This document shows, in pieces, positions 26,637-57,039 of a stretch of DNA of 64,000 nt. Position 1 is the first letter of the stretch; the number at the start of each line of letters is the position of its first letter. Source of the stretch: a virus; IMG/VR virus record IMGVR_UViG_3300025362_000004, positions 1-64,000 of that record, one strand, 5' to 3'. Below the pieces are notes generated by a model. That model was not told the origin of the DNA. It did not search any database and saw only the letters and a list, made by a program, of their open reading frames with translations. The translations under genes and the position numbers were made by a program.

Positions 26637-28436
26637 TTAATCTACAAAAACTCATGACTTAGCATTTTTTCCTCTACGTCTACGTTTTTTATAGTATTCT
26701 AACTCTATGTATTGGTTCACGCCATAGATAGCGTATTCAGCTGCGGAGAAAAAGTCCTTTTGGATATTTGAATCTCTGCGCTTAATTTTCATTGTTTTGT
26801 TAATATTATCTTGAATATCAGCAATTTCTATATTACGAAGTTCTAATTCCATTTCATCCATAAATCTATATGGTCTTAATTTTCTTTCTCTTGTTGGATT
26901 GCTTGCTCTTTTAAATCCTTCAAGTCCAGCAAATTTAGCAATCGCTTCTTGACTTTTTATAAGAAATCTAATAGAACCATTACTTATTCTTGAAAAGAAT
27001 AAATTATGTATTTGTTCAGCTTTCTGTCCAGTCGCTTTTATTTCATAACATATTGTTTTATCTTTTGGGTATTTGATTACATCTTTTTCTGCATTAGTAG
27101 GCGGGTTAATAATTCCTAATCCGTCTAATGGGATGCCATCATGAGTAATACTTCTTTTGTTTAATCAGTCGCGGATAGCCGCACCGATACCATTAGCATC
27201 ATAGATTAATAGTCGTGCTTCATATACTAGAACTGTTCGTTTTAATATATTCGATATAACTTCATAATCTGTGCTATCGATTCTAAATAAATTAACTAAT
27301 TTATAATTAAACATATATTCTTTTGGGGTAACTTTGAATATTTCAACTACAGTAGCTGCAGTCCCATCTTTCGCCATATCGGCTGATACAGCATAAAATG
27401 ATTCATTGTCATCTTCTCTTGCTTTATATTCTGCTCTAACTATCTTGCGTAATGCTGTAATAGTTGCTGCAGAGAATGCTGCTCCTTTAGTAGCCCCACT
27501 CCATATGCTCATATACTCTCTTTCAAATGACTCTCTTGTAAAACTTGGTGCTGATATTATTTCTTGAATAGTTTTTTCTTCTAATAAACCATGCATTACT
27601 GGTATTTGATAACTACCGCCCATAAAACCATAATTGTCTGGGTCGATAACTGTATAACAAAGTGTTTCAATTAATTTGTCATAAGCATAAGTTCCTTGAT
27701 AACCAGCTGTTGTAACGAAAATCTTACTACTATTCGGTTCTTTAAGATTTACATTGCCTCTAATATCTTCTCTAGGTTTATTAAGTAGTGGAATAACTTG
27801 CTCATTAATATAAGTAGCATCCAACTGAATAACTTCCTCAAAAATACCTGAGTTACGTCTGAATCCACGAATTGTTCCACCAACAACATCAAATATTCCG
27901 CCGTGTGTGAATCTAAATTCTGCGTATCCATTACCTTGAACGAAAGCGGCTTTTCATTGTCCTGCTTTCTTTACTTTTTGCATTTCATTCATTAATAGCG
28001 GGAATCTTACTCATAAGTCCCCTTCAATTTTTTCTTTCGCGATTTGCGCAGCTTGTTCTTTTGTTCCTGCTGTAACAAACGCTTTATGTCTAGGAACTAA
28101 CATAGTCGTTACATATCTACTATAGAAAGCCAAAAATGATTTTGAAAATCCACGAGTAAATGTAAAAAAGCTTTGTCTAGTTCTTGCCATTTCTCTTAAT
28201 ACCATTCTTTGCATAAAGAACATTGAAAAACTTGAATCTTCAGGTGTCATTATATCTGCTAGAATATCTGGATAAGTAAGAAAAGTATTAATTGCATTAC
28301 CAATTTTATCTAAATTCTTATCAATTCTAGACTTAGGCACGATGTTTGGAGAACTTTGAGTATTCTTATTAAGAAAATCAAAATATTCCTTAATCTCAGG
28401 CTCTATACTACTCGTCATCAAAGTACGCATAATCAT
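26637..28436 (-). CDS. terL: terminase large subunit, about 599 aa (TGA=Trp)
   Basis: Walker A-like TRGFSKSF, Walker B RGFRRNSGIFEEV, coupling motif VTTAG, nuclease SADMAK / YDANGIG / KDFFSA. Pieces are in frame across TGAs. Confidence 0.88.
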
Positions 28437-30096: not shown

Positions 30097-31068
30097 ATGA
30101 CCTGAATATACTGAGTAATAATGATTATACAATTCATTATTATTATTTCGTTGGCTACCAAAGAACCGCAAGTTATTGAAAAAATTAAAGACGTTTCTGA
30201 AGAGGAACGTCTAAAATTAGAACATGAGAAAACTAAACGATTAGCAGATTTAGAAAAAGAACTTTCAGAGAGACGTCTATCTTTCCAAAAAGAAATATCT
30301 GATAAGCGTGCGGAAGAATTAGAAGAAATTAATAAACTTAAAGAACGGAAGTATAATGAATTAGAATTAACAATAACTACTTGAGAGGAATCTCAAAAAT
30401 TAAGACAAAAAGAATTTTTAAATAAACAAGAAGAATTAAAATCTATGTATGCTGAGGAACTACAATCATCATTACAAGAACAAAAGGAAGAATTTGACGA
30501 TAAAGCCGCACAGGCTAAAGAAGAAACTAAATTAATCGAACAGGGGTTACTTGAATGAAAAACTAAGTATGACTCAGCAGTCGAAGTCTATAAAAAATTA
30601 GAAGAACTAAAGAATGCTGACTCACATTATAGAATTTCTTTTTCTCCTGATGAGAACGAAGAACTCGATGAATTAAATAGAGTTGTTCGTAAATTGAAGA
30701 ACCCGACACCATTTTACAAAGCTATATATGAAATATATTATAAAAATAAAGTTAAACAATTAACTTTAAGAGTTGTAGGCGTAGATAAAATCGCAGGCAT
30801 TTATAAAATTACTCATACAGAAAGCGGTAAATGCTATGTAGGGCAAAGTGTAGATATAGCAAATAGATGAAAACAACATATAAAAAGAGCTGTTGGAGCA
30901 GATACTCGAACAACTAATATGTTATATCCCGCAATGGCAGAATTAGGTATAGGAAGTTTCAATTTTGAAATAGTTGAAGTAGTAAATGACATAAATAAGT
31001 TAAACGAATTAGAAAAATATTGGCAAGAATTTTTAAAAGCAAAAGAATTTGGATTTAGTGTAAGATAA
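30097..31068 (+). CDS. membrane-anchored coiled-coil protein with C-terminal GIY-YIG nuclease domain (TGA=Trp)
   Basis: AAGGAG RBS; N-terminal TM segment MT*IY*VIMIIQFIIIISLA; coiled coil; GIYKITHTESGKCYVGQSVDIANR*KQH; stop TAA at 31066. Confidence 0.75.
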
Positions 31069-33126: not shown

Positions 33127-33155
33127 TTGACATGGTTGTCTATCCGTGATATAAT
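33127..33155 (+). promoter_or_regulatory. consensus sigmaA promoter containing a half-site (GGTTGTCTA) of the array palindrome
   Basis: TTGACA-tggttgtctatccgtga-TATAAT, 17-bp spacer. Confidence 0.7.
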
Positions 33156-33210: not shown

Positions 33211-33768
33211 ATGGAAGATTACAAACAAATCTATGACTTATCAAAAAGAGATATACAAGCACTATGTATCAAGGAAATTGAGAGAGTTCAATTTTTACCT
33301 AGCACGAAAACAAACAGAGCAACAATTAAAAGAATGTTTACTATTTATGATATGGTTAATAATGCAAGTGAAAACTTTATTGCTCAAAATGTTGAGGGCG
33401 TTCGTGGAAATTTTGAAATAAGAGATTTCGAAATGTTTAATATTGGTTCAATGCTAGAGTGTTTAGTAGAACATTATACAACAGGAAAAGACCATTGTTC
33501 AAAATCATTTTTTGACCAAAATGACTTAGAAAACGGCTTCATGCCTTACGAAATAAAAACGAGTTTGGATAATGCAAGGTGTACTGTAAACACTAAAGCC
33601 CAAACTGTAAAGTTTATAAATAATAAAGGTTCATATATAATTAAAAAAAGCGCATATGAAACTATCAAAAAAGACAGTAAAAGCAAGTTATACGAGAATA
33701 TGGACTACTCGCAATTTGAAGGTGTAAGACTTAATCACTCGTTAAGTGTAAAGTTAGGGCTTATCTAA
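33211..33768 (+). CDS. hypothetical early protein (possible PD-(D/E)xK-like motif D...YEIK)
   Basis: 185 aa ORF behind a strong promoter; a hairpin overlaps the stop. Confidence 0.6.
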   Translation: MEDYKQIYDLSKRDIQALCIKEIERVQFLPSTKTNRATIKRMFTIYDMVNNASENFIAQNVEGVRGNFEIRDFEMFNIGSMLECLVEHYTTGKDHCSKSFFDQNDLENGFMPYEIKTSLDNARCTVNTKAQTVKFINNKGSYIIKKSAYETIKKDSKSKLYENMDYSQFEGVRLNHSLSVKLGLI

Positions 33769-34177: not shown

Positions 34178-34211
34178 TCGGTGGTAGACAACCAAATTTT
34201 TTTGTCTGTCT

Positions 34212-34347
34212 ATGTAAGCGCTTACATATAGGGTGATGTAAGCGCTTACATATAGGGTGATGTAAGCGCTTACATATAGGGTGATGTAAGCGCTTACATA
34301 TAGGGTGATGTAAGCGCTTACATATAGGGTGATGTAAGCGCTTACAT
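34212..34347. repeat. six tandem 24-bp units, each containing the perfect palindrome ATGTAAGCGCTTACAT (cre/LacI-family operator consensus)
   Basis: Copies at 34212, 34236, 34260, 34284, 34308 and 34332 with spacer ATAGGGTG. Confidence 0.95.
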
Positions 34348-34439
34348 AGGTTGGTTGTCTGAGGCAGACAACCTAAAAAACTTGTAAAGTTTCTCAAAAT
34401 ATGATATAATTGGGTAAAGATAAAAAGGGGGTTCCAAAA

Positions 34440-34775
34440 ATGTGTGTAAAAGATATAGTAAAAAATAAAGGTGCAACTTTAACAAAAACATTAAGAAAGT
34501 CAATATTAAAAACGGGTTATATGGTTAGTATTAAAGGTTATGAAATACAAGTAGACGCAAGTGATTTTACAAAATTGAGTAACGAAATTTTTAAAACACA
34601 ACAACTTTCAAAATTTCATAAAAATTCTTATATTGGAATTTGGATTGAAGATGAAATTGCTTATATTGATTTAAGTGTTAATATTAAAGATTTAAAAGAA
34701 GCAACTAGCTTCGGAACAGAAAATGAGCAACTTGCAATTTATGGAATTAAAAATAGTGAATTACTTTATATTTAA
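34440..34775 (+). CDS. putative phage SAM lyase-like protein (cassette 1)
   Basis: The pattern GIW.E..AYID.S...EA..FG.EN.QLAIY resembles the T3-type SAMase family; recognised by motif only. Confidence 0.45.
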   Translation: MCVKDIVKNKGATLTKTLRKSILKTGYMVSIKGYEIQVDASDFTKLSNEIFKTQQLSKFHKNSYIGIWIEDEIAYIDLSVNIKDLKEATSFGTENEQLAIYGIKNSELLYI

Positions 34776-34893
34776 GGGCTGAAAAGTCCTTTTTATTTAA
34801 GGTAAGAGGCTGTCTGAGACAGACAACCTAAAAAACTTGTAAAGTTTCTCAAAATATGATATAATTGGGTAAAGATAAAAAGGGGGTTTCAAA

Positions 34894-35163
34894 ATGTTAG
34901 GACTAAATACGCCATTAACAGAGGAACAAAAAAACGAGGTTGAATATCAAACACACTTAGTATGTTTAAATTTAGTAAACACACAACGCAACTATTTAAT
35001 AATGCAAGCAAATGAGGAGTATTTCAACGTAATAGACGACTACGATTTCAAATTTGTAATACGCAATGATTTCAAATACTATGACGATATCAAATGGAAA
35101 TATGTAAACTTTAACAAAGTTAAAGCCTACATCGTAGAAACATTAACAGAGTTAAGAGCCTGA
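34894..35163 (+). CDS. hypothetical protein (cassette 2)
   Basis: Promoter/RBS nearly identical to cassette 1; ends TGA inside the terminator hairpin. Confidence 0.65.
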   Translation: MLGLNTPLTEEQKNEVEYQTHLVCLNLVNTQRNYLIMQANEEYFNVIDDYDFKFVIRNDFKYYDDIKWKYVNFNKVKAYIVETLTELRA

Positions 35164-35257
35164 AAAAGGGCTCTTTTTTTATTAACGCAAGTGGGTTGTC
35201 TACCATAGACAACCTAAAAAACTTGCATTATTTCGGTGTATATGATATAATATAAGT

Positions 35258-35390
35258 ATAGAGATAAGGTAGTCAATACCTCATCTCTCCACCAAAACTT
35301 TATTAGGCAAACCCACACTAACACGTGGAACCGTTGAATAAGTAAACTCTCTCTAAAAAACCCTATTGTGGCGATAGGGTTTAGAGAATA
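35258..35390 (+). ncRNA. candidate small RNA (cassette 3, no ORF)
   Basis: Promoter TTGCAT-N17-TATAAT; hairpin ending CTCCACCA; terminal hairpin AACCCTATTG/CGATAGGGTT; no RBS-led ORF. Confidence 0.45.
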
Positions 35391-35482
35391 TGCGCAAGGG
35401 GTTGTCTGCGGTAGACAACCTTTTTAATTTGACTTATTTCTTTATATATGGTATAATTACTATATAAGAAAGAGGTAATAAA

Positions 35483-35770
35483 ATGAAAAAAATAATAGTA
35501 TTAGTTGACGATAAAGAGAACTGTATTTTAGCGACGTTAGATTTAGAAAAGAGAAAAGTTGATGTAACACCAGTTAAAAGATTTAAAGAATTATCATTTT
35601 TAGGACAAGCAAGATTTCAAAATAAATTAGAAAGAGCACTTTTAGAAACAACCAGACTCAACGACGAAGAAAAAGAAAACGCAATCTCTAATTTAGTTTA
35701 TAAAAGATTTCTTGACGAGTCTCCAGAATTAGAAGAAATAATGGAATTAGTCGAATTAATGAAAGACTAA
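35483..35770 (+). CDS. hypothetical protein (cassette 4)
   Basis: Own promoter, RBS and terminator. Confidence 0.7.
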   Translation: MKKIIVLVDDKENCILATLDLEKRKVDVTPVKRFKELSFLGQARFQNKLERALLETTRLNDEEKENAISNLVYKRFLDESPELEEIMELVELMKD

Positions 35771-35907
35771 TTAATCGAAAAAAGAAAGTAGTCCTCCTCC
35801 TCTACTTTCTTCTTTATTGTAAGTATTAGGTTGTCTACGGTAGACAACCTAAAAAACTTGCTATTATTGAGTTTATATGTTATAATATATATAAGAGGTG
35901 AGAGATT

Positions 35908-36147
35908 ATGTTAGTATTACAAAGAAAGCATTATATTATGAGTGAGATTTTAAACGGTGGGAATACCTTAAAAGTTATACCAAAAAATGGGCTTGACAAT
36001 TACAGAGTAGGTCAAACAGTTAGAGTTTTTCATGAAATTAACTCGCAGAAATACCGAGAAGGAAAAATCACAAAAGTAAGACAACACGCATTTGAGTTTG
36101 GTTTTAGTGTTGGAACAACTGAATTGCCGAGAGTTATTATTTTATAA
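35908..36147 (+). CDS. hypothetical protein (cassette 5)
   Basis: Own promoter, RBS and terminator. Confidence 0.65.
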   Translation: MLVLQRKHYIMSEILNGGNTLKVIPKNGLDNYRVGQTVRVFHEINSQKYREGKITKVRQHAFEFGFSVGTTELPRVIIL

Positions 36148-36320
36148 ATTAAGACTTATAAGAGAAACAAATAGATAGGTCTGTGTTGAAGAAAAGGAAA
36201 CTTTGAAAAATCCTTTTCTTCTTTTATAATTCATGGTAGGTTGTCTGCCGTAGACAACCGAAAAGATTTGACATCATATCTAAATTATGATATAATATAA
36301 GTATAAAAGGGGTGAATTAA

Positions 36321-36575
36321 ATGGAATTTAAAACAGAGTTAAAAGTAAATATTCATTTTGAAAACAGAACAGTTTTTACAGATGAGGTAGTAAGGGATAG
36401 TATCACAGGCGAAGTTATCGCTGAATTAGTAAATGATATTGATATGGGAACTGCTACTACAGTAGAAAATGATATACTAAAAGATGGTTCTTGTATTTTA
36501 TCAGTAACAAAAGAAACAAGTGGCTTCAATGCTGAAACTGGGTTTTACGACTTAGATTTAACAATTGAAATGTAG
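36321..36575 (+). CDS. acidic hypothetical protein (cassette 6)
   Basis: Own promoter and RBS; 3' trailer homologous to that of cassette 5. Confidence 0.65.
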   Translation: MEFKTELKVNIHFENRTVFTDEVVRDSITGEVIAELVNDIDMGTATTVENDILKDGSCILSVTKETSGFNAETGFYDLDLTIEM

Positions 36576-36742
36576 TTAAGGCTTATAGAATCTAAAATAG
36601 ATAGGCTTGTTTGGAAGAAAAGGAAACTTTGAAAACTCCTTTTCTTCCTTTATAAAATGATAGAGGTTGTCTGCAGTAGACAACCTTATTCGTTTGACTT
36701 AAAATAATATATATGGTATAATATATGTAAGAGGTGAGATGT

Positions 36743-37225
36743 ATGAAAAAGAAATTATATTTTGATATGGACGGTATTTTAGCCGATTTTGACAATGAGC
36801 CAAACGCTTTAACACGTTTTAAAAAAGAAAAAGGCTTTTTCGCAACACTACAACCAATAGAAGAAAATATTAAGGCTGTAAAAAAACTTATCGCAGAGGG
36901 TAAAAAAGTTTATATATTAAGTGTAAGTCCTAACAGACAAGCCGACACTGACAAAAAATCTTGGCTTAAGAAATATCTACCAGAAGTAAAAGAAAAGAAT
37001 ATATATATTATAAGGACAGGAACGCCAAAGAATAAAGCCGTAAAAGTAAAGAGAGCAATATTGTTTGACGATTACCGATTAAATGTTAGAAAATGGATTG
37101 ACGCTGGTGGCTACCTTGCTATAAAAATAACACAAAGAACAGATAAAAAACTCAAAGCCGAATATCAAGCAAGAACTTTAGAACAAAGTATTTCAAGATT
37201 AAAAATGTTTGGGGTGATACAATGA
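36743..37225 (+). CDS. HAD-family 5'(3')-deoxyribonucleotidase (NT5C-like; cassette 7)
   Basis: YFDMDGILADF, ILS, K..WL and ILFDD motifs. Confidence 0.8.
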   Translation: MKKKLYFDMDGILADFDNEPNALTRFKKEKGFFATLQPIEENIKAVKKLIAEGKKVYILSVSPNRQADTDKKSWLKKYLPEVKEKNIYIIRTGTPKNKAVKVKRAILFDDYRLNVRKWIDAGGYLAIKITQRTDKKLKAEYQARTLEQSISRLKMFGVIQ

Positions 37226-37380
37226 AAACTATTTATATTGTGTCATGGGAAAGAAAACATGATATATTAAATGACGAAGAAATGGAAAAAATATTAAATG
37301 GTGGAGTAATAATAAAAGACGGTATAAGATATGTTTCTTTGTGGGGTTATATTGATATAAATATAGAGATTGAAAAATAA
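37222..37380 (+). CDS. small hypothetical protein (second gene of cassette 7)
   Basis: ATGA overlap with the upstream gene; 52 aa; terminator overlaps the stop. Confidence 0.55.
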   Translation: MKTIYIVSWERKHDILNDEEMEKILNGGVIIKDGIRYVSLWGYIDINIEIEK

Positions 37381-37520
37381 TCTCTTTTTCTTTCTTTTGA
37401 GTAGGTTGTCTGCGGTAGACAACCTAATTTATTTGACATTGTTTTCTTTCTATGGTATAATATATACATAAGATAAAGAAAGATATTACTAAACTTTATC
37501 AAAAAAAGGGGTAACATATT

Positions 37521-37781
37521 ATGGCTAAAGTAACAAAAAAAGTAACAGAGTTGAGCGATAAAGCGAAAGAAATTTTAGTGGTTTTGCAAGGTGCTGACAA
37601 GGGTTTGACACTACAAGAAATCACAAGCAAGGGCGTTGTAAAGCCTAATGGCTCACACTTAAAAGCACTTGAAAACAGAAATCTTGTTACAAGCGTTGAT
37701 GTTGAAATTATCGTGCCAACTACAAGAACAGTAAAATCTTATTCTGTTGTTGTGGCTGAAGAAGAAACACCAGCCGAGTAA
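37521..37781 (+). CDS. small winged-helix-like protein (cassette 8); paralog of 45970 and 57205
   Basis: LSDKAKEILVVL..GLTLQEI...HLKALENRNLV...YSV. Confidence 0.65.
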   Translation: MAKVTKKVTELSDKAKEILVVLQGADKGLTLQEITSKGVVKPNGSHLKALENRNLVTSVDVEIIVPTTRTVKSYSVVVAEEETPAE

Positions 37782-37900
37782 AAAACTAAAGCGAGAAATC
37801 GCTTTTTTTTCTATTCGCAAGTGGTTGTCTGCGGTAGACAACCTAAATGACTTGACTTATTTTAGTATCTATGGTATAATATATATAAGAGGTGATAAAT

Positions 37901-38224
37901 ATGTTATTTAATAATGAGTATTATAATATTCTAAAAAGAGAAGAAAGAGAAATGAAACAAGAGGCTTTAATCGAAAGGTCAAAAGAATTTACTAAAATGG
38001 TTTTAAAAACCGAAGAAGCAATATTACATTTTAACTTTAGTAAAAAATTAAAAACTAAAATTAGTATAATAACTTATGTGTGGTTAGGTCTTGCTACTTT
38101 TAGAAAAGAGTTTAAAGAATATTTTTATAGAGAGTACAAAGAAATGGAAATTGATATAGTTAGTATAGAATATGACAAATCTGAATTCTGTCACGATTTC
38201 ATTCTCAAATTGAAAAAGAGATAA
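37901..38224 (+). CDS. hypothetical protein (cassette 9)
   Basis: Own promoter, RBS and terminator. Confidence 0.6.
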   Translation: MLFNNEYYNILKREEREMKQEALIERSKEFTKMVLKTEEAILHFNFSKKLKTKISIITYVWLGLATFRKEFKEYFYREYKEMEIDIVSIEYDKSEFCHDFILKLKKR

Positions 38225-38324
38225 TCTCTCTTTTTTTATTGTAGTTAGGTTGTCTGCGGTAGACAACCTAAGTGACTTGACTTATTTTAGTATCTATGGT
38301 ATAATATATATAAGAGGTGAGAAT

Positions 38325-38786
38325 ATGAAAAACTTAATCAAAGTATTAAATGAAATTACAAACGAAAAAATTATTGTTTCGGCTCGTGGTGGTAGCCCCA
38401 TCATAAACACAAATCAGCGTAGCGTTATAAAGCAAAGAATAGAAAAAGCATTTTTAACAGACTTGCAAGAAATTTTTGCTGAAACCGATTTAGTCCATAT
38501 TATTGGTAGGGCTGAAAAAGGTATAATGTTAGCCATAGAGCATAATGATTTAGTAGATAATGCAAAAACTGAAGGCGAAATTGCTTTAGAATTTAATATC
38601 AAAGTAAGCAATTTAGATTTTGACACAGACACAGAAATTAGACTACACACAAAAGAACAAGCTAACAAAGAAATAGAAAAACAAGAAAAAGCACTTGCAA
38701 AGAAAAGAAAAATTGCAAGAGATAAAAAAGATAGAGCAGATAGAAAAAAAATAAAAGAACAAAAATTAGCCAAGTTAAACGGCTAG
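38325..38786 (+). CDS. hypothetical protein with basic coiled-coil tail (cassette 10); paralog of 45012 and 56521
   Basis: Shares GI...I.H/N and LE...K...L.FD motifs and a K/R-rich C-terminus. Confidence 0.7.
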   Translation: MKNLIKVLNEITNEKIIVSARGGSPIINTNQRSVIKQRIEKAFLTDLQEIFAETDLVHIIGRAEKGIMLAIEHNDLVDNAKTEGEIALEFNIKVSNLDFDTDTEIRLHTKEQANKEIEKQEKALAKKRKIARDKKDRADRKKIKEQKLAKLNG

Positions 38787-38884
38787 TTTTTCTTTGACTT
38801 TCTAGAGGTTGTCTGCAGTAGACAACCTTCAATTTTTGACATTCTACTTAGTTTATGGTATAATATATATAAGAGGTGATAGAT

Positions 38885-39379
38885 ATGAAATTTAATGATG
38901 TAGTTGTAAAAATGGGCGAGTTAGTAAGTGGTTTTTTATCTGCTGTAAGTCCTGCGATATCTGTATCATTTGACAATTTTTCAAGTTTTGACCCTGAAGA
39001 AAATGTTATATATATAGGTCTATTGCCTATGACTGAAGAAAATCCCTATGACGATTTTCATAAAGGCTATTACAGAGCAAGTGGCTTTGATTATGAAAGT
39101 TATGGTATATCATTTGAAACTTTTACAATATTGCACGAGTTAGGACATATGGAAAGCAACCCAACAGAAAAAGAATACCAAGAATATTATAGATTAACAA
39201 ATATAATAAATAATTCAAATATGGAATTATCTACAAAAGCAAATAAATACTTTGCATTAGATTTAGAATATAAAGCAAATCAATGGGCTTTCAACTTCTT
39301 AAAAGATAATTTAGATATTGTTAGAGTGTTTGATAAAGCATTCAACCTCCTAAAAAGCGAATTACTCAATTGCGAGTAA
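38885..39379 (+). CDS. HExxH zinc metallopeptidase-like protein (ImmA/IrrE-like; cassette 11)
   Basis: TILHELGH...LEYKANQWA. Confidence 0.7.
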   Translation: MKFNDVVVKMGELVSGFLSAVSPAISVSFDNFSSFDPEENVIYIGLLPMTEENPYDDFHKGYYRASGFDYESYGISFETFTILHELGHMESNPTEKEYQEYYRLTNIINNSNMELSTKANKYFALDLEYKANQWAFNFLKDNLDIVRVFDKAFNLLKSELLNCE

Positions 39380-39478
39380 TTTCTTTTTCTTCTGGGTTGG
39401 TTGTCTACGGCAGACAACCGCATTCGTTTGACTTAAGGCATTATATATGGTATAATATTTATATAAGAGGTGATAAAT

Positions 39479-40180
39479 ATGTTTTGTTCAAATACAACTA
39501 CAAGCGATTATATATTTTTAATAGTAACTCACGAGTGCGATAGGAATTGTGCTTTCTGCGTAGATAAGGACAGAGGAAAACAAGAATATATTACAATGGA
39601 AAATGCGGCGAAAGCAGTCCAATATTGTTTAGATAATGATATTAAAACGATTACTATATTAGGTGGCGAACCCACACTACACCCATTTATTGCATCAATA
39701 TGTTCTATGATAAGATATTATGGTATAAATATTGTAATGACTACAAATTACAGTAAACCTTCAGTTGTTGCTTACCTAGATAAATTTGTAAGTAGTTTTA
39801 ATATATCTTATTATGACCAAAAACACTTACCAAAGCAAAAAGATTTTAATGCCGACCTTACATTATCAAAGTTATTGTTTAAAGGTGGTATCGACACAAG
39901 AGAAAAACTAGACAACTTTATTGATAAACATCAAAATGATTTCAATGACTTAAAGTTCTCTACACTAACAGATATAAATAAGTTTACCCACGACCACAAA
40001 GACTTACTATTCTTAGACCAACTACCAATAGATAAAAAGGTAACTATTATGGGCGAAATTCAAGGTCATTATTATAGAGGTTATTTAATTAAGAGATTTG
40101 ATTTGAAAGCGACTGAAAATTATTATTGTCAAAGGTCAATGAAAATGCATACCAACGGGGAATTAAAAAGAGAGTGGTAA
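39479..40180 (+). CDS. radical SAM protein (cassette 12)
   Basis: CDRNCAFC (CxxxCxxC), GGEPTLHP, TTN. Confidence 0.85.
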   Translation: MFCSNTTTSDYIFLIVTHECDRNCAFCVDKDRGKQEYITMENAAKAVQYCLDNDIKTITILGGEPTLHPFIASICSMIRYYGINIVMTTNYSKPSVVAYLDKFVSSFNISYYDQKHLPKQKDFNADLTLSKLLFKGGIDTREKLDNFIDKHQNDFNDLKFSTLTDINKFTHDHKDLLFLDQLPIDKKVTIMGEIQGHYYRGYLIKRFDLKATENYYCQRSMKMHTNGELKREW

Positions 40181-40289
40181 CACTCTTTTATTTTAAATTG
40201 AGAAGGTTGTCTACGGCAGACAACCGCATTTGTTTGACTTAATAATAAATATATGGTATAATTAAGTAAAGAAAAAGGGGTATTAAGAA

Positions 40290-40853
40290 ATGGAATATTA
40301 CGGTAGAAATGATTTAAAGAGGGCTATCAAGAGATTTGAGAATGTCAAAAAGATAGCATTAAAATTAAAAGAGTTAGACATTCGTATAGGTCAACCGTTT
40401 AGGGTTAAACAGTTAGGCAATACGATTACTCATTCTGGGACTTTGTTTATGCAACTTGTAAACTCTGGAGTTCTAAAGGTTGTTGAAGTAAGGAAAGAGG
40501 TTTGCCCTTATATCAATAGAGGCGTTGAAACTGTTACAAGTTATAAGCGCATAACAGATGGCTGTATCATTAGCGCTGAAATGTATCACGATATGAATTG
40601 GCGCGGTAGAGATAAATATATTGGATGCCAAAAATCTTTTAAACCTGCTATGAGTAAATACAATGTATATGCAATTCAAGAGAATTGGCGTGGCATTCTT
40701 GTTAAAGAAATCAAAGAATTACAAGGTGCAGTTACGAACATTATTGCAAGAGAAACCAAATGGTTCGTAAACTCAGTTCAAGAATTAACTACTTTCTTTA
40801 AAAACGACGAATGGTCATTAAGAAGAGAAATAAGAAGAATTGAAAACTGCTAA
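40290..40853 (+). CDS. hypothetical protein (cassette 13); distant paralog of 42241
   Basis: G..FR.K..G...L...G...VVE.R is shared with cassette 16. Confidence 0.65.
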   Translation: MEYYGRNDLKRAIKRFENVKKIALKLKELDIRIGQPFRVKQLGNTITHSGTLFMQLVNSGVLKVVEVRKEVCPYINRGVETVTSYKRITDGCIISAEMYHDMNWRGRDKYIGCQKSFKPAMSKYNVYAIQENWRGILVKEIKELQGAVTNIIARETKWFVNSVQELTTFFKNDEWSLRREIRRIENC

Positions 40854-40951
40854 AAGACCGCAAGGTCTTTTTTCCCGTGTAAGGTAGGTTGTCTGCCGTA
40901 GACAACCTAAAATATTTGACAAACTTAACTCTATATGGTATAATATATGTA

Positions 40952-41275
40952 TAAGGTTGAGATAGAAACTCGTAAAAACGAAACATTGTTTAAACTCAAT
41001 TTGTAGTAGGAACCTTATAAAATGTGCTTATGTTAGCGAACCAGCGACTAACTAAAATTGCAAGTGTGAATGTGGAACTTGCAGGTATCCATTGCCTACA
41101 GCTATGGCGTAATTAGAAATTTTAACGACAAAAAAACCGTATACCTTGTTTGTGGTGCTTGTAACGATAACGAAAGTAACCGCCAAAGTCCTGTGGTAAA
41201 GGCAAAATAGGTTGAGAAATGTGGACTTTCTCATTAAATAAAGACTAATGCATAACTATTAGCCTATTTTTTTTA
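40952..41275 (+). ncRNA. candidate ncRNA of about 320 nt (cassette 14, no plus-strand ORF)
   Basis: TTGACA-N17-TATAAT promoter, multiple hairpins, terminal hairpin plus T run, no RBS-led ORF. Confidence 0.5.
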
Positions 41276-41371
41276 CGCAAGGAGTGGTTGTCTGCCACAG
41301 ACAACCGAATAATTTGACAATGTAAGCGTTTTATGATATAATATAGGTAGTTAAGAAAGGACTTGACAAAA

Positions 41372-42130
41372 ATGAGCGAAAAAGAAAAAATCTTAATTTT
41401 AGATACAGAGGTCAACGGGAAATTTGTTTATGATATTGGTTTTATTATCGCTGAGGAAAGCGAAAAGGGTTTTTATCACGCCGTAGAAAAGCATCAATTT
41501 TTAGTAGAACAGATATATTATAATCATAGATTATTTACTACTGATTATTACGCAAAGAAACGGAAAACTTATACAAAACTAATGAAAGGTAGAAATGCAA
41601 TATCTAAAAAGTTTGGTTATATAACACAAATAATCGCACACACCATCAAAAAACATGATATTAAAAAAGTTTATGCTTATAATAGTAATTATGATAAAAC
41701 AAGGTTTGCATTTACAAGTAATGATTTCAAAGTTATAAATCCGTTTGATAAAATAGAATGGCACGATATAATGGCTATCTCTAATCACTTTATACATTTA
41801 AGTGAAAAATATATCAATTTCGCTATTGAGAATGAGTATATCAATTCAAGTGGTTTTATTGAAACAACAGCCGAAACAACTTATCAATTTGTAGATAGCA
41901 ATATTGATTTTAAAGAGGAACACACCTCACTTGCTGACTGTGAAATAGAAATGGAAATATTAAACTATTGCATAGCAAAGGGATACAATAAAGAACAAGT
42001 TTACAAAACAAAAAATATCCCAAGTGATAAATTGCAAGTATTAACAGTAATTCACGAAAGCACCGAACATAAATTTGGTTATGTAAAAAGAAAAAATAGT
42101 TATTTAAAAAATCAAATTACTCTCACATAG
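41372..42130 (+). CDS. DEDDh 3'-5' exonuclease (cassette 15)
   Basis: ILDTEV, AYNSNYD and EEHTSLAD motifs. Confidence 0.8.
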   Translation: MSEKEKILILDTEVNGKFVYDIGFIIAEESEKGFYHAVEKHQFLVEQIYYNHRLFTTDYYAKKRKTYTKLMKGRNAISKKFGYITQIIAHTIKKHDIKKVYAYNSNYDKTRFAFTSNDFKVINPFDKIEWHDIMAISNHFIHLSEKYINFAIENEYINSSGFIETTAETTYQFVDSNIDFKEEHTSLADCEIEMEILNYCIAKGYNKEQVYKTKNIPSDKLQVLTVIHESTEHKFGYVKRKNSYLKNQITLT

Positions 42131-42240
42131 AGAGTTTTTTGCTTTTAATTTAATTAGGTTGTCTGCGGTAGACAACCGCATAAGTTTGACAAGTTTCTTT
42201 GTATATGGTATAATATAAGTATAGAAAAGGGGTAATAAAT

Positions 42241-42669
42241 ATGTTAAATGTAAATGTAGTAGACACTTACAGCGCGAGGGCGCTTGTCCGTGATTTTAGA
42301 ACTATCTATAGCAAGGTAGGGACATCAATTTTTAGGTCTAAAGAGGTTGGCGAACATTATCGCGCTGAATTAGAAAAGTTAAAAAGATACGGTCTTTGTA
42401 GAGTTGTAGAAACAAGACATCAACAAGTAGTAGATACAAGCCGTTGTTACAGAAACGATATGACTTTGGTAAATACAAGAAACCAAGATACAGTCGATGA
42501 AATTGAAAACGCCGTAGAGGGCGAAACTTACAAAGCCGTAAAAGGTAGAGTAATTAAAGGCGAGTTTTATACATACCAATTAACTTGTAATAGTATTAGT
42601 GACTTAATTGATGAAATCGAAAACCAATTATTCAAAGCCGGAAAAGATTTAAGAATGCATTTTTGTTAA
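42241..42669 (+). CDS. hypothetical protein (cassette 16)
   Basis: Own promoter, RBS and terminator; similar to 40290. Confidence 0.65.
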   Translation: MLNVNVVDTYSARALVRDFRTIYSKVGTSIFRSKEVGEHYRAELEKLKRYGLCRVVETRHQQVVDTSRCYRNDMTLVNTRNQDTVDEIENAVEGETYKAVKGRVIKGEFYTYQLTCNSISDLIDEIENQLFKAGKDLRMHFC

Positions 42670-42794
42670 AAGACCGAAAGGTCTTTTTTTGTTTTTGAGG
42701 TGGTTGTCTGCCGTAGACAACCTATTCAGAAGAAAATAAATTGACAAATGTTCGGCGATATGGTATAATCAGTATATAGAAAAGGGGTATTATT

Positions 42795-43085
42795 ATGAAA
42801 AAAATAAAAAAAGCATTAGACTTAATAGAAAATGAATTCTCAAAAATAATTGCAAAAATTACGGAAGATCTTGGGGTTGTAGTTTACTATTATGGCAAAT
42901 TAGAATTTCATCATGGGGTAGAATTTATCCAAAAAATTGAGTTTACAAGAAGTGACGAAGAATTCCTTTTTTACTTGACAGCAAATATAAAAGATATGAA
43001 ATTTAAAGCCGATATAAATAATATATTTCATCATAATTCATTTGAATTTGAAACTGTAAAGAGAATTGTAAAAGACTTTAACTAG
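42795..43085 (+). CDS. hypothetical protein (cassette 17)
   Basis: Own promoter, RBS and terminator. Confidence 0.65.
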   Translation: MKKIKKALDLIENEFSKIIAKITEDLGVVVYYYGKLEFHHGVEFIQKIEFTRSDEEFLFYLTANIKDMKFKADINNIFHHNSFEFETVKRIVKDFN

Positions 43086-43188
43086 TCTTTTTTAAAAATT
43101 AAAGTGGTTGTCTGCCGTAGACAACCGCATTTGTTTGACTTAAAACGTTATGTATGATATAATATAAGTATAGAAAAGGGGTATCAAA

Positions 43189-43578
43189 ATGAAAAAAATG
43201 TTATTATTATTAGTAGTATTAGTTATTGGGTTCGGTTTTGTAGGTTGCGACCAAGCGAGTGTGGCCGCCGATAATATCAGCACAGGTGCAGACAATTTTG
43301 AAGTTCTTAGAAAAGTAGTTTTCTATAATGGGATTACAGACGAGTATATGTATGCAATTGAAGGCTATTGTTCTATCAAGCAAGACAACATTGATAATCA
43401 ATTAGAAGTAACTTGTAAAACGGGCGAAGACGCCTATGTAAAACACTATTTATATTTGAGTGATAATATCACATACATGGTTATTCAGTTAGAGACTGTC
43501 AATGTAGACACCTATCATTATAGGTTTATTTTAAGACCGAATGTTTTAATTCCTGATATTGAAGTCGATTTACCGTAG
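43189..43578 (+). CDS. phage lipoprotein (cassette 18)
   Basis: Signal peptide with lipobox FVGC, followed by ADNFEV.R.VVFYNGITD. Confidence 0.75.
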   Translation: MKKMLLLLVVLVIGFGFVGCDQASVAADNISTGADNFEVLRKVVFYNGITDEYMYAIEGYCSIKQDNIDNQLEVTCKTGEDAYVKHYLYLSDNITYMVIQLETVNVDTYHYRFILRPNVLIPDIEVDLP

Positions 43579-43696
43579 TTAAATTAAGACCTTCGGGTCT
43601 TTTTTTTGTGAGTTGAATGGTTGTCTGCCGTAGACAACCGCATTTATTTGACTTAAAGCGTTGTGTATGGTATAATATATGTATGAGGTGATAGGT

Positions 43697-44110
43697 GTGG
43701 AAAAGTTAATATTTGAAGATAAAATGAGTGGTATTAGAGTTAATTTAAGTAAAGAATTAAGAGAAGAAATGAACGAGATAACAATGGGCTTAGATTATAT
43801 GACACCGAAAGACGTCCCTGATTTTGTTTTGTACGGTATTTGGTGGAGTTTTAAAGGTATGTTTTTAGAGATACTTTTTGAGAAAGACAGTACTAACGTA
43901 AAACTTAGAAAATCTGGTAAAACTGAAGAAATTTTAGTTAGTGAGTATTATTCTAAAAGTCTCTTTGACAGTTTAGTTGGTATGCTAGATAACGACGACC
44001 AAATAAAAGTTTGGCTATATACAAATCGCAAAGACATTTGGGAACAATTAGTTGATAAATTCGGTAGCGAAAAAAATGTGTTTGACGAATATATTAGATT
44101 TAACCATTAG
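43697..44110 (+). CDS. hypothetical protein (cassette 19)
   Basis: GAGGTG RBS, GTG start, terminator overlapping the stop. Confidence 0.6.
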   Translation: MEKLIFEDKMSGIRVNLSKELREEMNEITMGLDYMTPKDVPDFVLYGIWWSFKGMFLEILFEKDSTNVKLRKSGKTEEILVSEYYSKSLFDSLVGMLDNDDQIKVWLYTNRKDIWEQLVDKFGSEKNVFDEYIRFNH

Positions 44111-44222
44111 GTTAAATCTTTTTTATTTTAAGGTGGTTGTCTGCCGTAGACAACCTAAAATAATTGACAATTTAAAATATATATGATATAATATGTATAT
44201 AGAATTAAAAAGGAGAAATAAT

Positions 44223-44615
44223 ATGAAAAAGATTTATGCGTTCGGTTTCACCTACGATGATTTTGCGGACGGTGGTTTTAGTCCTAATTTTATTAGTTTT
44301 AGTAAAGAAGAATGTTTTAATAAATTAAAAAAAGAAAATAATGACTATGCAGTTGTGTCCTATGATTTTGAAAAAGATTTTGATTATGACGAAATTGAAA
44401 TAATTGCTATTGTTAGAGATGGCCAATTTACTATTTTAACAGATTTAGAAGAATTAAAAGAAAAAGCATTTCAGTTGGGTAAAAATTTAATATCAACTAT
44501 GAACATTATTAACGAACCAAATGAAGAACAATATACTTTCATAGATAATGAGTTTAAAAAAATGGGTTTACCAAATTTTGCTTCATTCCAAGTTTTTGAA
44601 AGGCTTTTTACATAA
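44223..44615 (+). CDS. hypothetical protein (cassette 20)
   Basis: Own promoter, AAGGAG RBS and terminator. Confidence 0.65.
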   Translation: MKKIYAFGFTYDDFADGGFSPNFISFSKEECFNKLKKENNDYAVVSYDFEKDFDYDEIEIIAIVRDGQFTILTDLEELKEKAFQLGKNLISTMNIINEPNEEQYTFIDNEFKKMGLPNFASFQVFERLFT

Positions 44616-45011
44616 GCCTTTTTTTTATAAATTGTATGGTTGTCTGCCGTAGACAACCAATTAGTTGAATGTTTAGGTTGTCTGCCAAAAATGAACGAAT
44701 AAAGGAATGAGTTTACTTTTCGTTCACTGTTCAGGAGAAAAATAAATATACGCCGACCGTTATTTACCATACCAAGAAAACCCCATTCATTATTCACTAT
44801 TCATTATACGCAAGAACACCGTGCCGTTCATTATTCATTATTAACACGCAAGAAGCAGCAGGCCTATGTTCATTATTCATTATTAAACACGCAAGAGTGA
44901 ACTAAAAATTATTTTATTTTTTATTTCTAAATACACTTGACAAAGTTGCCGAAATATGGTATAATATATATAAGAGATAAGGAAAATATTTTATCTCAAA
45001 AAGGGGTAATA

Positions 45012-45410
45012 ATGAAAAATTTAGAAAAGTTGTTTAATGAATTAAGAGTAAGTGAAATTCAAGTTTCCAAGCGTAAAGGTGCAAAAGTAATCAGTCAGAA
45101 ACAGTTGTCCACTATTAAACAGTCAATCATGAACGCAATATTGAATGATATCAAAGAGGTATTAAGTGAATCTGAGTTCGTGGGTATTAACGAAAACGGC
45201 ATTGTAATTGAAATAATGAACGACCAAGTTGACTCATTATCATTTGAAATGAATCCTAAAATTAAAGGTTTAGAGTTCGACGCTTACTATTCAGTATTGG
45301 ACTTCAATATGGAACAAGAAGCCAAACGTGAACGTGCGGCTCAACGAAAGAAAGATGCCAAAGCGAAATTCACTAATGCGCAAGCACAAAGGAAAACTAC
45401 TGCAAAGTAG
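45012..45410 (+). CDS. hypothetical protein, paralog of 38325 and 56521
   Basis: Consensus promoter at 44937-44965; shared motifs. Confidence 0.7.
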   Translation: MKNLEKLFNELRVSEIQVSKRKGAKVISQKQLSTIKQSIMNAILNDIKEVLSESEFVGINENGIVIEIMNDQVDSLSFEMNPKIKGLEFDAYYSVLDFNMEQEAKRERAAQRKKDAKAKFTNAQAQRKTTAK

Positions 45411-46265: not shown

Positions 46266-46342
46266 GCTCCCATAGACAAAACGGTAAAGTCACTAGGCTT
46301 TCAACCTAGAATTTGCGGGTTCAAACCCCGTTGGGAACACCA
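46266..46342 (+). tRNA. tRNA-Glu(TTC)
   Basis: Anticodon arm CTAGG-CTTTCAA-CCTAG, T-loop GGTTCAAACC, encoded CCA. Confidence 0.85.
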
Positions 46343-46485: not shown

Positions 46486-46567
46486 GGGGTTGTAAGGGTT
46501 CGACAGTATTGTAAACCAACAAACGGAGCAATGCTGGACAGGGGTTCAACTCCCCTCAATTCCACCA
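46486..46567 (+). ncRNA. tmRNA tRNA-like domain only (mini-ssrA, 82 nt)
   Basis: 5' GGGGTTGTAAGGGTTCGAC, P2 CAGTATTGT/GCAATGCTG, 3' GGACAGGGGTTCAACTCCCCTCAATTCCACCA, G3:U pair; no tag reading frame. Confidence 0.75.
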
Positions 46568-56283: not shown

Positions 56284-56521
56284 CTTCTTCTCCTCGTAGC
56301 GAGTCCAAATTTCTTCTTGCTACTTTTACTCTAATCTTATCAACCATTTGGTCAATGATTTGATGTTGATATTTCTTTGGATAGCCTGTATATGTTTTAG
56401 TCACATAATGCAAGCAATCAATATAAATATCCCAATACTGTTCTTCACACATTTTTACACCATATTGAACTAAATCTAACTGTTCAATAAATTGTTTATC
56501 ATACTCATTCAACGGTATCAT
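56273..56521 (-). CDS. hypothetical protein
   Basis: Coupled ORF. Confidence 0.55.
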   Translation of the reverse strand: MIPLNEYDKQFIEQLDLVQYGVKMCEEQYWDIYIDCLHYVTKTYTGYPKKYQHQIIDQMVDKIRVKVARRNLDSLRGEEDGE

Positions 56522-57039
56522 TATTCTTCATCATCTTCTTTTTCTTCTGCTTCTTGTTCTTTTTGAAGATAGCGTTCTATTTTCTTCTCTTTAACTCTTT
56601 TCTTCTCTGCTCTAGCTTCTGCATCTCGTTTAATTTTTCTATCACGTTCTGCGGCTTTAGAGCGAGCTTTTTCTTCATCTTGCTCTTTCTTAAAAGCATA
56701 TTCTCTTTGTTGCTCTGACGCATCATAATCAAGATTTTTAATCTTTAATCCAATTTCTAATGAAATCATACCATTACATAAATCATCTTCATCTTTAGTT
56801 ATAACTTGTCTTTCAACTTTTTCATTATGGATTTCTAAAATCGGTCCATCCTTTGTAATGTAGACTTCAACACCCATTTCTTCTCCCAGTTCCTTTAAAC
56901 CTTCAAATAAGGCTTCAACTAATAAAGCCTTTTCTTGATTTCTTTCGGTTTGTTGAACTGATAAAACTCCTCGACTGGTTCCGACGGCTAAGTCTTTGTC
57001 TTTGAGTTCTTGCACTTTTGTAATAAATGCTTCAAACAT
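56521..57039 (-). CDS. hypothetical protein, paralog of 38325 and 45012
   Basis: GPILEIHN...ISLEIGLKIKNLDYD followed by a charged coiled coil. Confidence 0.7.
   Translation of the reverse strand: MFEAFITKVQELKDKDLAVGTSRGVLSVQQTERNQEKALLVEALFEGLKELGEEMGVEVYITKDGPILEIHNEKVERQVITKDEDDLCNGMISLEIGLKIKNLDYDASEQQREYAFKKEQDEEKARSKAAERDRKIKRDAEARAEKKRVKEKKIERYLQKEQEAEEKEDDEE

Follow-up and report, generated by a model that had tools for sequence, protein, structure and literature searches.

Organization of the array

The DNA analyzed here, referred to as the window, is the first 64 kb of IMG/VR record IMGVR_UViG_3300025362_000004, an uncultured salt-lake phage whose record is complete by CheckV at 123,582 bases (123.6 kb). 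The window contains an array of 20 small units bounded by copies of a 21-bp palindrome, GGTTGTCT-N5-AGACAACC. When up to two mismatches were allowed, this pattern was found 21 times in the window, with 20 exact matches and one copy (at 34808, left arm GGCTGTCT) that has a single mismatch; 0.01 matches were expected, as determined from 100 shuffles. All copies are confined to positions 34353-44658, separated by start-to-start distances of 206-871 bp. A search of the whole 123,582-base record returned the same 21 copies and none outside these positions, and the backwards control gave 0. These counts agree with the initial annotation of this DNA, which was made from the letters alone and had reported 21 copies of the palindrome around 20 units.

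The units share one layout: palindrome, promoter, leader with a strong ribosome-binding site, small gene, and hairpin terminator. All 20 have their own consensus promoter and most have a terminator, and terminator-like hairpins are enriched (27 observed compared to 4.1 expected), which bears out the earlier description of the units as self-contained. The terminators are separate from the palindromes and are located before them. Palindrome 21, the last copy, had been noted to lack a promoter, and we likewise found no consensus promoter behind it. It is followed by a -35-like TTGAAT and then by a truncated left half of the palindrome, and this region (44638-44686) is a decayed unit. At the other end of the array there is a degenerate unit 0. 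The features are listed below in order of position, with the strand in parentheses; coding sequences are abbreviated CDS and open reading frames ORF.

33127..33155 (+): promoter of the head-of-array gene, 12/12 match to the consensus, with a half-site GGTTGTCT (33134-33141) inside the -35/-10 spacer
33211..33768 (+): head-of-array gene, 185 amino acids, uncharacterized family, candidate reader of the palindrome
34186..34193 (+): degenerate unit 0, right arm AGACAACC followed by 8 bp and TTGTCT
34212..34348 (+): 24-bp unit in 5.7 tandem copies, each with ATGTAAGCGCTTACAT
34353..34775 (+): unit 1, palindrome 34353-34373, -35 at 34382, CDS 34440-34775 (111 amino acids, phrog_17808)
34808..35163 (+): unit 2, palindrome 34808-34828 (left arm GGCTGTCT), -35 at 34837, CDS 34894-35163 (89 amino acids)
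35194..35392 (+): unit 3, palindrome 35194-35214, -35 at 35223, no ORF, RNA of ~135 nt at 35258-35392
35400..35770 (+): unit 4, palindrome 35400-35420, -35 at 35429, CDS 35483-35770 (95 amino acids)
35829..36147 (+): unit 5, palindrome 35829-35849, -35 at 35858, CDS 35908-36147 (79 amino acids)
36239..36575 (+): unit 6, palindrome 36239-36259, -35 at 36268, CDS 36321-36575 (84 amino acids)
36665..37380 (+): unit 7, palindrome 36665-36685, -35 at 36694, NT5C-type deoxyribonucleotidase 36743-37225, 52-amino-acid ORF 37222-37380
37404..37781 (+): unit 8, palindrome 37404-37424, -35 at 37433, long leader, CDS 37521-37781 (86 amino acids, winged-helix-like by structural neighbors)
37823..38224 (+): unit 9, palindrome 37823-37843, -35 at 37852, CDS 37901-38224; skipped in one contig of run X9
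38248..38786 (+): unit 10, palindrome 38248-38268, -35 at 38277, CDS 38325-38786 (153 amino acids), paralog of 45012-45410
38807..39379 (+): unit 11, palindrome 38807-38827, -35 at 38836, CDS 38885-39379 (164 amino acids, weak M78/metalloprotease match)
39399..40180 (+): unit 12, palindrome 39399-39419, -35 at 39428, radical SAM protein 39479-40180
40205..40853 (+): unit 13, palindrome 40205-40225, -35 at 40234, CDS 40290-40853 (187 amino acids)
40887..41278 (+): unit 14, palindrome 40887-40907, -35 at 40916, ~330 nt without a convincing ORF or fold signal
41286..42130 (+): unit 15, palindrome 41286-41306, -35 at 41314 (7-bp gap), exonuclease-like CDS 41372-42130 (phrog_20187)
42157..42669 (+): unit 16, palindrome 42157-42177, -35 at 42186, CDS 42241-42669 (142 amino acids)
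42702..43085 (+): unit 17, palindrome 42702-42722, -35 at 42741 (18-bp gap), CDS 42795-43085 (96 amino acids)
43106..43578 (+): unit 18, palindrome 43106-43126, -35 at 43135, lipoprotein-like CDS 43189-43578 (PF25682, phrog_478)
43619..44110 (+): unit 19, palindrome 43619-43639, -35 at 43648, CDS 43697-44110 (137 amino acids)
44135..44615 (+): unit 20, palindrome 44135-44155, -35 at 44164, CDS 44223-44615 (130 amino acids; homolog in the related contig L041 69% identical)
44638..44686 (+): palindrome 21 (44638-44658), no consensus promoter, TTGAAT, truncated left half GGTTGTCTGCC (44676-44686)

The 5-bp centers of the palindromes vary: GCCGT was found seven times, GCGGT five times, GCAGT and ACGGC twice each, and ACGGT, GAGGC, GAGAC, ACCAT and GCCAC once each. 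It had been suggested that ACGGC, the reverse complement of GCCGT, marks sites that were inverted. We rejected this interpretation. The centers are connected by a chain of single substitutions, so ACGGC can be explained without inversion, and all genes of the array are on one strand.

Position of the palindrome relative to the promoters

Behind each of copies 1-20 there is a near-consensus sigmaA-type promoter (TTGNNN-17-TATAAT with a TG extension), in which the -35 is TTGACA, TTGACT or a close variant. The gap between the end of the palindrome and the -35 is 8 bp at 18 of the 20 promoters. The two exceptions are unit 15, with a gap of 7 bp, and unit 17, where the gap of 18 bp is one helical turn more than 8 bp. 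The presence of the promoters had been recognized in the initial annotation, which placed them about 5-20 bp after the palindrome, but the spacing is far stricter than that. The fixed gap puts the right arm, AGACAACC, at about -51 to -44.

The promoter and palindrome belong to a module of ~100-120 bp that is repeated 20 times; it begins in the terminator tail or at the left edge of the palindrome and ends at the ATG. The modules are 72-97% identical, whereas the coding sequences between them are mutually unrelated. The gaps behind the palindromes are mostly A-rich (for example, TAAAAAAC and TAAAATAA) and are not U-tracts. In a simple scan for intrinsic terminators, seven of the 21 palindromes scored as terminator-like on the + strand, because the gap is T-rich there; as a set, the palindromes did not qualify as intrinsic terminators. 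We also considered that the arm could be a -35 element of the extracytoplasmic function (ECF) type, and rejected this because there is no conserved -10 partner downstream.

The promoter pattern had 86 hits genome-wide. About 18 of these, mostly between 46 and 88 kb, have AGAT directly before the -35, often with GGAATAT ahead of it. Because the palindrome is present only at the array promoters and the AGAT class is found elsewhere, the genome holds promoter classes with different upstream elements.

Conservation of one arm in related phages

We scanned metagenomes for the palindrome followed by a gap and TTG, and obtained five related contigs (L034, L041, L042, L046 and L037). Among the promoters of these contigs that bear the arm, the right arm AGACAACC is exactly 8 bp from the -35 at 22 of 22, including one at a contig end for which a script artefact had given 9 bp. 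The spacer between the arms is 5 bp at ten of these promoters, 6 bp at seven and 4 bp at one; the left arm is absent at three, and one site is cut by the end of the contig. Although one mismatch was allowed, the right arm has none in the window or in the five contigs. The sequence of the 8-bp gap, the flanks and the center all vary, and the unit proteins shared between contigs are only 36-69% identical. Thus, as expected for an operator-type element, a conserved word is held at a fixed promoter position both in the window (18/20) and in its relatives (22/22), and in the relatives the right arm is conserved beyond its flanks and the coding sequences. Information content calculated for the right arm and the -10 was disregarded as circular, since the pattern used for selection already demanded both.

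Because the 8-bp gap is fixed while the spacer varies and the left arm can be absent, the anchor is the right arm and not the center of the dyad. The promoter-proximal arm is the conserved, position-locked element, and the dyad is common yet optional. Changes in the left arm (GGCTGTCT in the window and AGCTGTCT in L047, a 97%-identical variant of the window from the same scan) are uncompensated, which argues against a hairpin as the functional form.

The scan yielded one other near-identical variant, L044. It is identical to the window over 580 bp and then unrelated and of higher G+C; the junction lies inside the CDS of unit 17, and we set L044 aside as a probable chimeric contig. Several other searches for relatives were unproductive. 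There was no match to the array among GenBank phages (megablast), only single chance matches were obtained when IMG/VR was scanned for the palindrome in its N5 and N6 forms, and an IMG/VR search with the exonuclease-like protein found nothing. An IMG/VR match to the radical SAM protein, L008, proved to be an unrelated phage without such promoters or repeats. We also scanned 185,579 species genomes and found at least 120 matches to the palindrome, each of them single and taxonomically scattered, as by chance. Among the matches listed, this distribution appears to support neither a host regulon nor a prophage array.

A different word in distant relatives

More distant relatives (G001, G002/G004 and G005), with a large terminase that is ~51% identical to that of the window, carry early promoters in a syntenic array, on the opposite strand from the terminase. 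At these promoters we found another word, AGACGGA, located 16-17 bp upstream of the -35 at 8 of 21 (G001), 7 of 23 (G002) and 6 of 12 (G005) promoter-pattern hits. It occurs once as a palindrome, CTTCCGTCT-TAG-AGACGGAAG. In tblastn comparisons, the nucleotidase and exonuclease-like genes were the only early genes common to the window and the distant relatives. A lineage-specific word at a fixed distance would fit the pattern of a DNA-binding protein that co-evolves with its site.

AGACGGA has a pronounced strand bias. In a 4.8-kb early region of G001 (L023, that is G001:C1:26000-45999 on the reverse strand, ~38.8-43.6 kb) there are 49 forward copies and 1 reverse copy, and 31 copies are inside ORFs, in all three frames (21/7/3). 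The word is also present in G002, G004 and G005. The bias looks like strand-specific selection at the level of nucleic acid and is reminiscent of stoperators or Chi-like words. A 127-bp terminal repeat in G002 was considered as a genome end and rejected, as it looks like an assembly overlap.

Unit content and rearrangement

The content and order of units differ among L034, L041, L042 and L046. In L034, units similar to 11, 8 and 10 are followed by three units without a counterpart in the window and by the start of a unit similar to 15. L046 has units similar to 1, 6 and 7a, and units 2-5 are missing. In L041, two other units precede the homolog of unit 20, and a further gene follows it where the window has the promoterless palindrome 21. 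The window and L041 share a block of homology (80% identity) that begins 18 bp ahead of palindrome 20 and ends 10 bp beyond palindrome 21. A fixed order and content in relatives had been named at the outset as the finding that would speak against a cassette system, and the comparison showed that both vary.

Logan contigs of four sequencing runs were compared with the window, and one clean joint was found. A 432-nt contig from run X9 joins position 37847 to 38273 and skips unit 9, with 48 identical nt on both sides. This contig retains the unit-9 base at +25, right of the palindrome; the exchange would therefore lie within the promoter and leader. We did not use the remaining joints, which are unreliable because their shorter side has at most 24 letters. 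Many Logan contigs match only the module and then diverge (share 0.38-0.89), as expected from related phages, and such divergence does not mark breakpoints.

No tyrosine recombinase (PF00589), serine recombinase (PF00239) or Y1 transposase (PF01797) was found in the complete 123.6-kb genome. The same searches were positive in 14, 12 and 6, respectively, of 14 control genomes. The initial annotation had seen no integrase in the window, and for these three families the statement now extends to the whole genome.

Products of the units

The unit proteins are unrelated to one another. Three of the 20 passed the Pfam cut-off (the NT5C nucleotidase, the radical SAM protein and the PF25682 protein), and six of the 20 have a match in PHROGs. 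Matches of the HExxH/M78-like protein of unit 11 and the exonuclease-like protein of unit 15 (phrog_20187) are weak. Of the functions proposed initially, the nucleotidase, radical SAM protein and lipoprotein were thus supported by Pfam or PHROGs, the HExxH peptidase and exonuclease have weak matches only, the winged-helix protein is a structural lead only (unit 8), and the SAM-lyase-like (S-adenosylmethionine lyase-like) protein was not confirmed by any search. There were no enriched words inside the ORFs of the window units.

The initial annotation had listed noncoding RNAs among the products of the array. Units 3 and 14 have no sense-strand ORF of at least 40 amino acids that fits the unit. 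The RNA of unit 3 folds far better than shuffled sequences (z -4.6). The RNA of unit 14 has no fold signal compared to shuffles (z 0.22). Neither RNA had a match in Rfam.

Two unit proteins deserve a further comment. The unit-10 protein has paralogs outside the array at 45012-45410, just beyond its end, and at 56521-57039 (- strand); the first of these is behind a consensus promoter without the palindrome. The unit-18 protein (43189-43578) has a lipoprotein-type N-terminus and matches PF25682 (Phage_VG64) at 5.5e-48. Its phrog_478 match is labeled 'recombination directionality factor', which is probably an annotation that was carried over.

Candidate readers of the palindrome

Two proteins are candidates for a protein that reads the palindrome, as judged from gene position and structural models. 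The first is encoded by the head-of-array gene (33211-33768), and a half-site is present in the promoter of this gene. From base composition, we estimate that about one extra GGTTGTCT 8-mer per strand is expected by chance, so only the location of this half-site is suggestive. The protein belongs to a family of 52 representative clusters (E ≤0.001). Across 44 sequences, E83 and K116 do not vary and D105 and E114 hardly do; D105, E114 and K116 make up a D-x8-E-x-K pattern reminiscent of restriction endonucleases of the PD-(D/E)xK kind. A profile built from close homologs detected weak homologs exactly at the array heads in G002 (E 5.6e-7) and G001 (E 7e-4). An AlphaFold2 (AF2) model had a predicted local distance difference test score (pLDDT) of 79, and its best whole-length VIA structural matches, both at noise level, were the restriction endonuclease NhoI (Z 4.9, root-mean-square deviation 6.3, 121 aligned) and the N-domain of Eco15I (Z 4.0). 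Nothing was found for this protein in PHROGs, Pfam, PDB sequence profiles, Foldseek, Atlas or GenBank phages (tblastn), or in IMG/VR searches with A1 and P0017.

The second candidate is the 86-amino-acid protein of unit 8. It has winged-helix neighbors in the Atlas, with template modeling (TM) scores of 0.65-0.76 on a model of pLDDT 0.58; an AF2 model made without an alignment was poor (pLDDT 58). Three homologs were found in a collection of 5.8 billion proteins, and there is one in L034. No homolog was found by tblastn in the distant relatives.

Surroundings of the array

The tandem repeats at 34212-34348 are directly before palindrome 1, and the word ATGTAAGCGCTTACAT in each of them is a perfect palindromic match to the catabolite-responsive element (cre) bound by CcpA, for which the consensus is WTGNNARCGNWWWCAW (PMC3463425). 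These repeats could possibly be a sponge for host CcpA, a roadblock or a sensor. L047 is shorter than the window by 48 bp at the cre repeats, and a cre-like word adjoins a promoter in another relative, L014.

Behind the array, at 44760-44900, there are three repeats of TTCATTATTCATTATTAA(A)CACGCAAGA. The word (C)ACGCAAG is also found between the terminator and the palindrome in four modules of the window and in many modules of its relatives. A tRNA (46266-46339) and a short tmRNA-like match (RF00023, 65.1 bits, 46486-46567) are located just behind the array. The genes for the large terminase (26640-28433, - strand) and a GIY-YIG protein (30097-31068, + strand) are free of stops only if TGA is read as Trp (code 4), unlike the array genes, which are read in the standard code.

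The palindrome as a probable promoter element

We think it probable, given its position and conservation, that the palindrome is a lineage-specific, protein-binding cis-regulatory element that marks one class of sigmaA-type early promoters, and that it probably serves for their coordinated shut-off. The functional core would be the right arm held 8 bp from the -35, and the inverted distal arm would provide a second binding position. A sequence-specific protein, most likely encoded by the phage and specific to its lineage, would bind this element and switch all 20 units together. Repression seems likelier than activation because the promoters are already near consensus and have an extended -10, and the likeliest effect would be a coordinated shut-off of host-takeover genes from an upstream position. 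The module from terminator tail to ATG could then be a portable expression unit, and general recombination between its homologous copies could add, delete and reorder units, as the promoter-early stem-loop elements (PeSLs) do in T4-type phages. An operator that co-regulates early promoters had been named as the alternative in the initial annotation, and it fits the data better than the recombination site that was preferred there.

Several observations weigh against this interpretation. Two promoters of L034, at 928 and 1007, do not have the arm. The phasing is partly inherited, since whole modules are copies of one another, and the 20 promoters should not be counted as independent observations. 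An activator is not needed at near-consensus promoters, and positions -64 to -44 are not the classical place for a repressor. A rigid dimer bound to double-stranded DNA would not usually accommodate a spacer that varies between 4 and 6 bp, which would better suit the loop of a hairpin. The joint in the X9 contig could be an artefact of the de Bruijn graph across the 48-nt repeat. None of the 24 listed runs is recorded as RNA, and the reader protein is at the level of a candidate. Finally, four half-sites (at 44676 in the window, at 332 and 505 in L046, and in L037) are all broken at or in the center of the palindrome. Together with the L041 block bounded by palindromes 20 and 21, these breaks hint that the palindrome itself is a seam of rearrangement.

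That hint leads to the best-surviving alternative, which we nevertheless consider unlikely: the palindrome would be where a site- or structure-specific system crosses over or cleaves the DNA to capture, delete and shuffle units, with a non-classical enzyme, possibly the nuclease-like head-of-array protein. Besides the broken half-sites and the L041 block, it would account for the different content and order of units in contigs that share the palindrome (L034, L046 and L041) and for the n+1 sites around n units. The head-of-array gene adds its D-x8-E-x-K pattern with a conserved upstream E, its weak homologs at the array heads of distant relatives, and its noise-level structural matches to restriction endonucleases. 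Such a role is harder to combine with a site that is locked to the -35 through one arm, with a spacer that varies between 4 and 6 bp and a left arm that is dispensable and changes without compensation. In addition, every one of the units carries a promoter, tyrosine and serine recombinases and Y1 transposases were not found in the genome, and the sole clean joint is in the promoter homology and not in the palindrome. The same points speak against the initial view, in which the palindrome was a hairpin or a site of integron-like recombination. Deletions are common at palindromes in general, and they would account for the half-sites without any dedicated system.

It is also improbable that the palindrome is the site of a host transcription factor, borrowed so that early expression follows the condition of the host. 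There are reasons to consider it: immediate-early promoters act ahead of any phage protein, phi29 borrows host Spo0A boxes, and the arms fit the generic GT-N-AC dyad of GntR-type operators. The six perfect cre matches directly upstream of the array indicate that this phage does use host-regulator words. The matches listed from the 185,579 species genomes, however, are single and scattered, and relatives with a 51% identical terminase use another word, which is a better fit for a co-evolving phage protein.

More speculatively, and we would not expect it to be correct, the palindrome and the nuclease-like head-of-array protein might be two parts of one system that is widespread in large uncultured phages. 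This system would read the word of its lineage at every early promoter, switch the host-takeover genes, and drive the gain, loss and reordering of units by nicking or cutting the dyad, as a recombinase-free counterpart of integrons.

An RNA or single-stranded DNA hairpin, acting as a back-up terminator, an insulator, or a processing or stability signal on read-through transcripts, is very unlikely. In its favor, the loop differs between sites in sequence and length (4-6 nt) whereas the stem is conserved, the site is directly behind each terminator, seven of the 21 palindromes are terminator-like on the + strand, and PeSL stem-loops act as terminators (PMC2839356). Against this, sites with only the right arm hold the exact 8-bp position, changes in the arm are uncompensated, most gaps are A-rich (TAAAAAAC, TAAAATAA) rather than U-tracts, separate terminators are already present ahead of the palindromes, and the site is outside the predicted transcription units. 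Least plausible of all is a functionless palindrome carried along as the promoter module spread by duplication: the whole module from palindrome to ATG is indeed repeated at 72-97% identity, but the right arm is never mismatched in the window and five contigs while the gap, center and coding sequences diverged, and relatives keep a different word at a fixed distance.

Comparison with known systems

The obvious comparison is with integrons, in which attC is an imperfect palindrome of 57-141 bp at the 3' end of a promoterless ORF and is recognized as a folded strand. The array resembles integrons in its small heterogeneous genes, its recurring palindromic element, the n+1 sites for n units, and content that varies between relatives. 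It differs in having no IntI or other tyrosine recombinase (PF00589, complete genome) and in units that bear their own promoters and terminators, compared to promoterless cassettes read from a common promoter. Its site is 21 bp long with perfect arms and is locked to the -35, and does not have the properties of attC.

Regulators that act upstream of the core promoter include phi29 p4, at the A2c and A3 promoters, and P2 Ogr, with sites centered near -55. As in those systems, a dyad site is present upstream of the -35 in fixed phase at several promoters of what would be one temporal class. The present array is distinguished by having 20 promoters within 10 kb, and its site combines perfect arms with a variable center. 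The promoters are already consensus, whereas P2 late promoters depend on the activator.

Blocks of early genes offer a further parallel. The T5 pre-early region carries a 5'-deoxyribonucleotidase, and here the deoxyribonucleotidase and exonuclease-like protein are the array genes conserved in all relatives. We know of no shared invariant palindrome at a fixed promoter distance in the T5 region or in the host-takeover module of SPO1. The SPO1 module (PMC6873191) is likewise a block of many small early genes with strong host-type promoters.

The stoperators of cluster A mycobacteriophages (PMC9283540) are many copies of a repressor-binding word distributed across phage transcription units. In this they resemble the palindrome, and the AGACGGA word of the distant relatives is similar in being asymmetric and strand-specific. 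The site in the window differs in being palindromic and located between terminator and promoter, not inside transcription units, and no immunity repressor or integrase is evident here.

The closest counterpart is provided by PeSLs, cassettes of promoter and stem-loop that recur in the plastic regions of T4-type phages and mediate homologous exchange there (Arbiol et al. 2010, PMC2839356; Comeau et al. 2014, PMC4122927). Both are short repeated intergenic modules with a strong host-type early promoter and a stem-loop, placed ahead of small genes, most of them without a known function, in a plastic region, the content of which varies among relatives in the present case, and both can be viewed as points of homologous exchange at which genes are added, deleted or replaced. 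The stem-loop of a PeSL serves as the terminator, is not conserved in sequence, and occupies five positions relative to the promoter, whereas here a separate terminator precedes the palindrome, and one arm is invariant at a fixed 8 bp from the -35. The array also differs in its sigmaA, low G+C type of host and in belonging to another phage lineage. Mini-circles were shown by experiment for PeSLs (PMC2839356, PMC4122927), compared to a single contig joint here. PeSLs thus do not have an invariant, phase-locked word. In the literature searched, such a word at a phage early promoter array is not described, and PeSLs were the sole counterpart found.

Implications

If the palindrome is a shared promoter element as proposed, this phage would standardize its host-takeover genes as plug-in units with the same strong promoter and the same switch, and one protein could switch about 20 early genes, most of them unknown, on or off as a group. 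The feature seems general, in that distant relatives carry another word at a fixed distance. It would then offer a way to trace the master regulator behind early development in uncultured phages, and the module could serve as a compact, portable promoter-plus-operator part for low-G+C bacteria.

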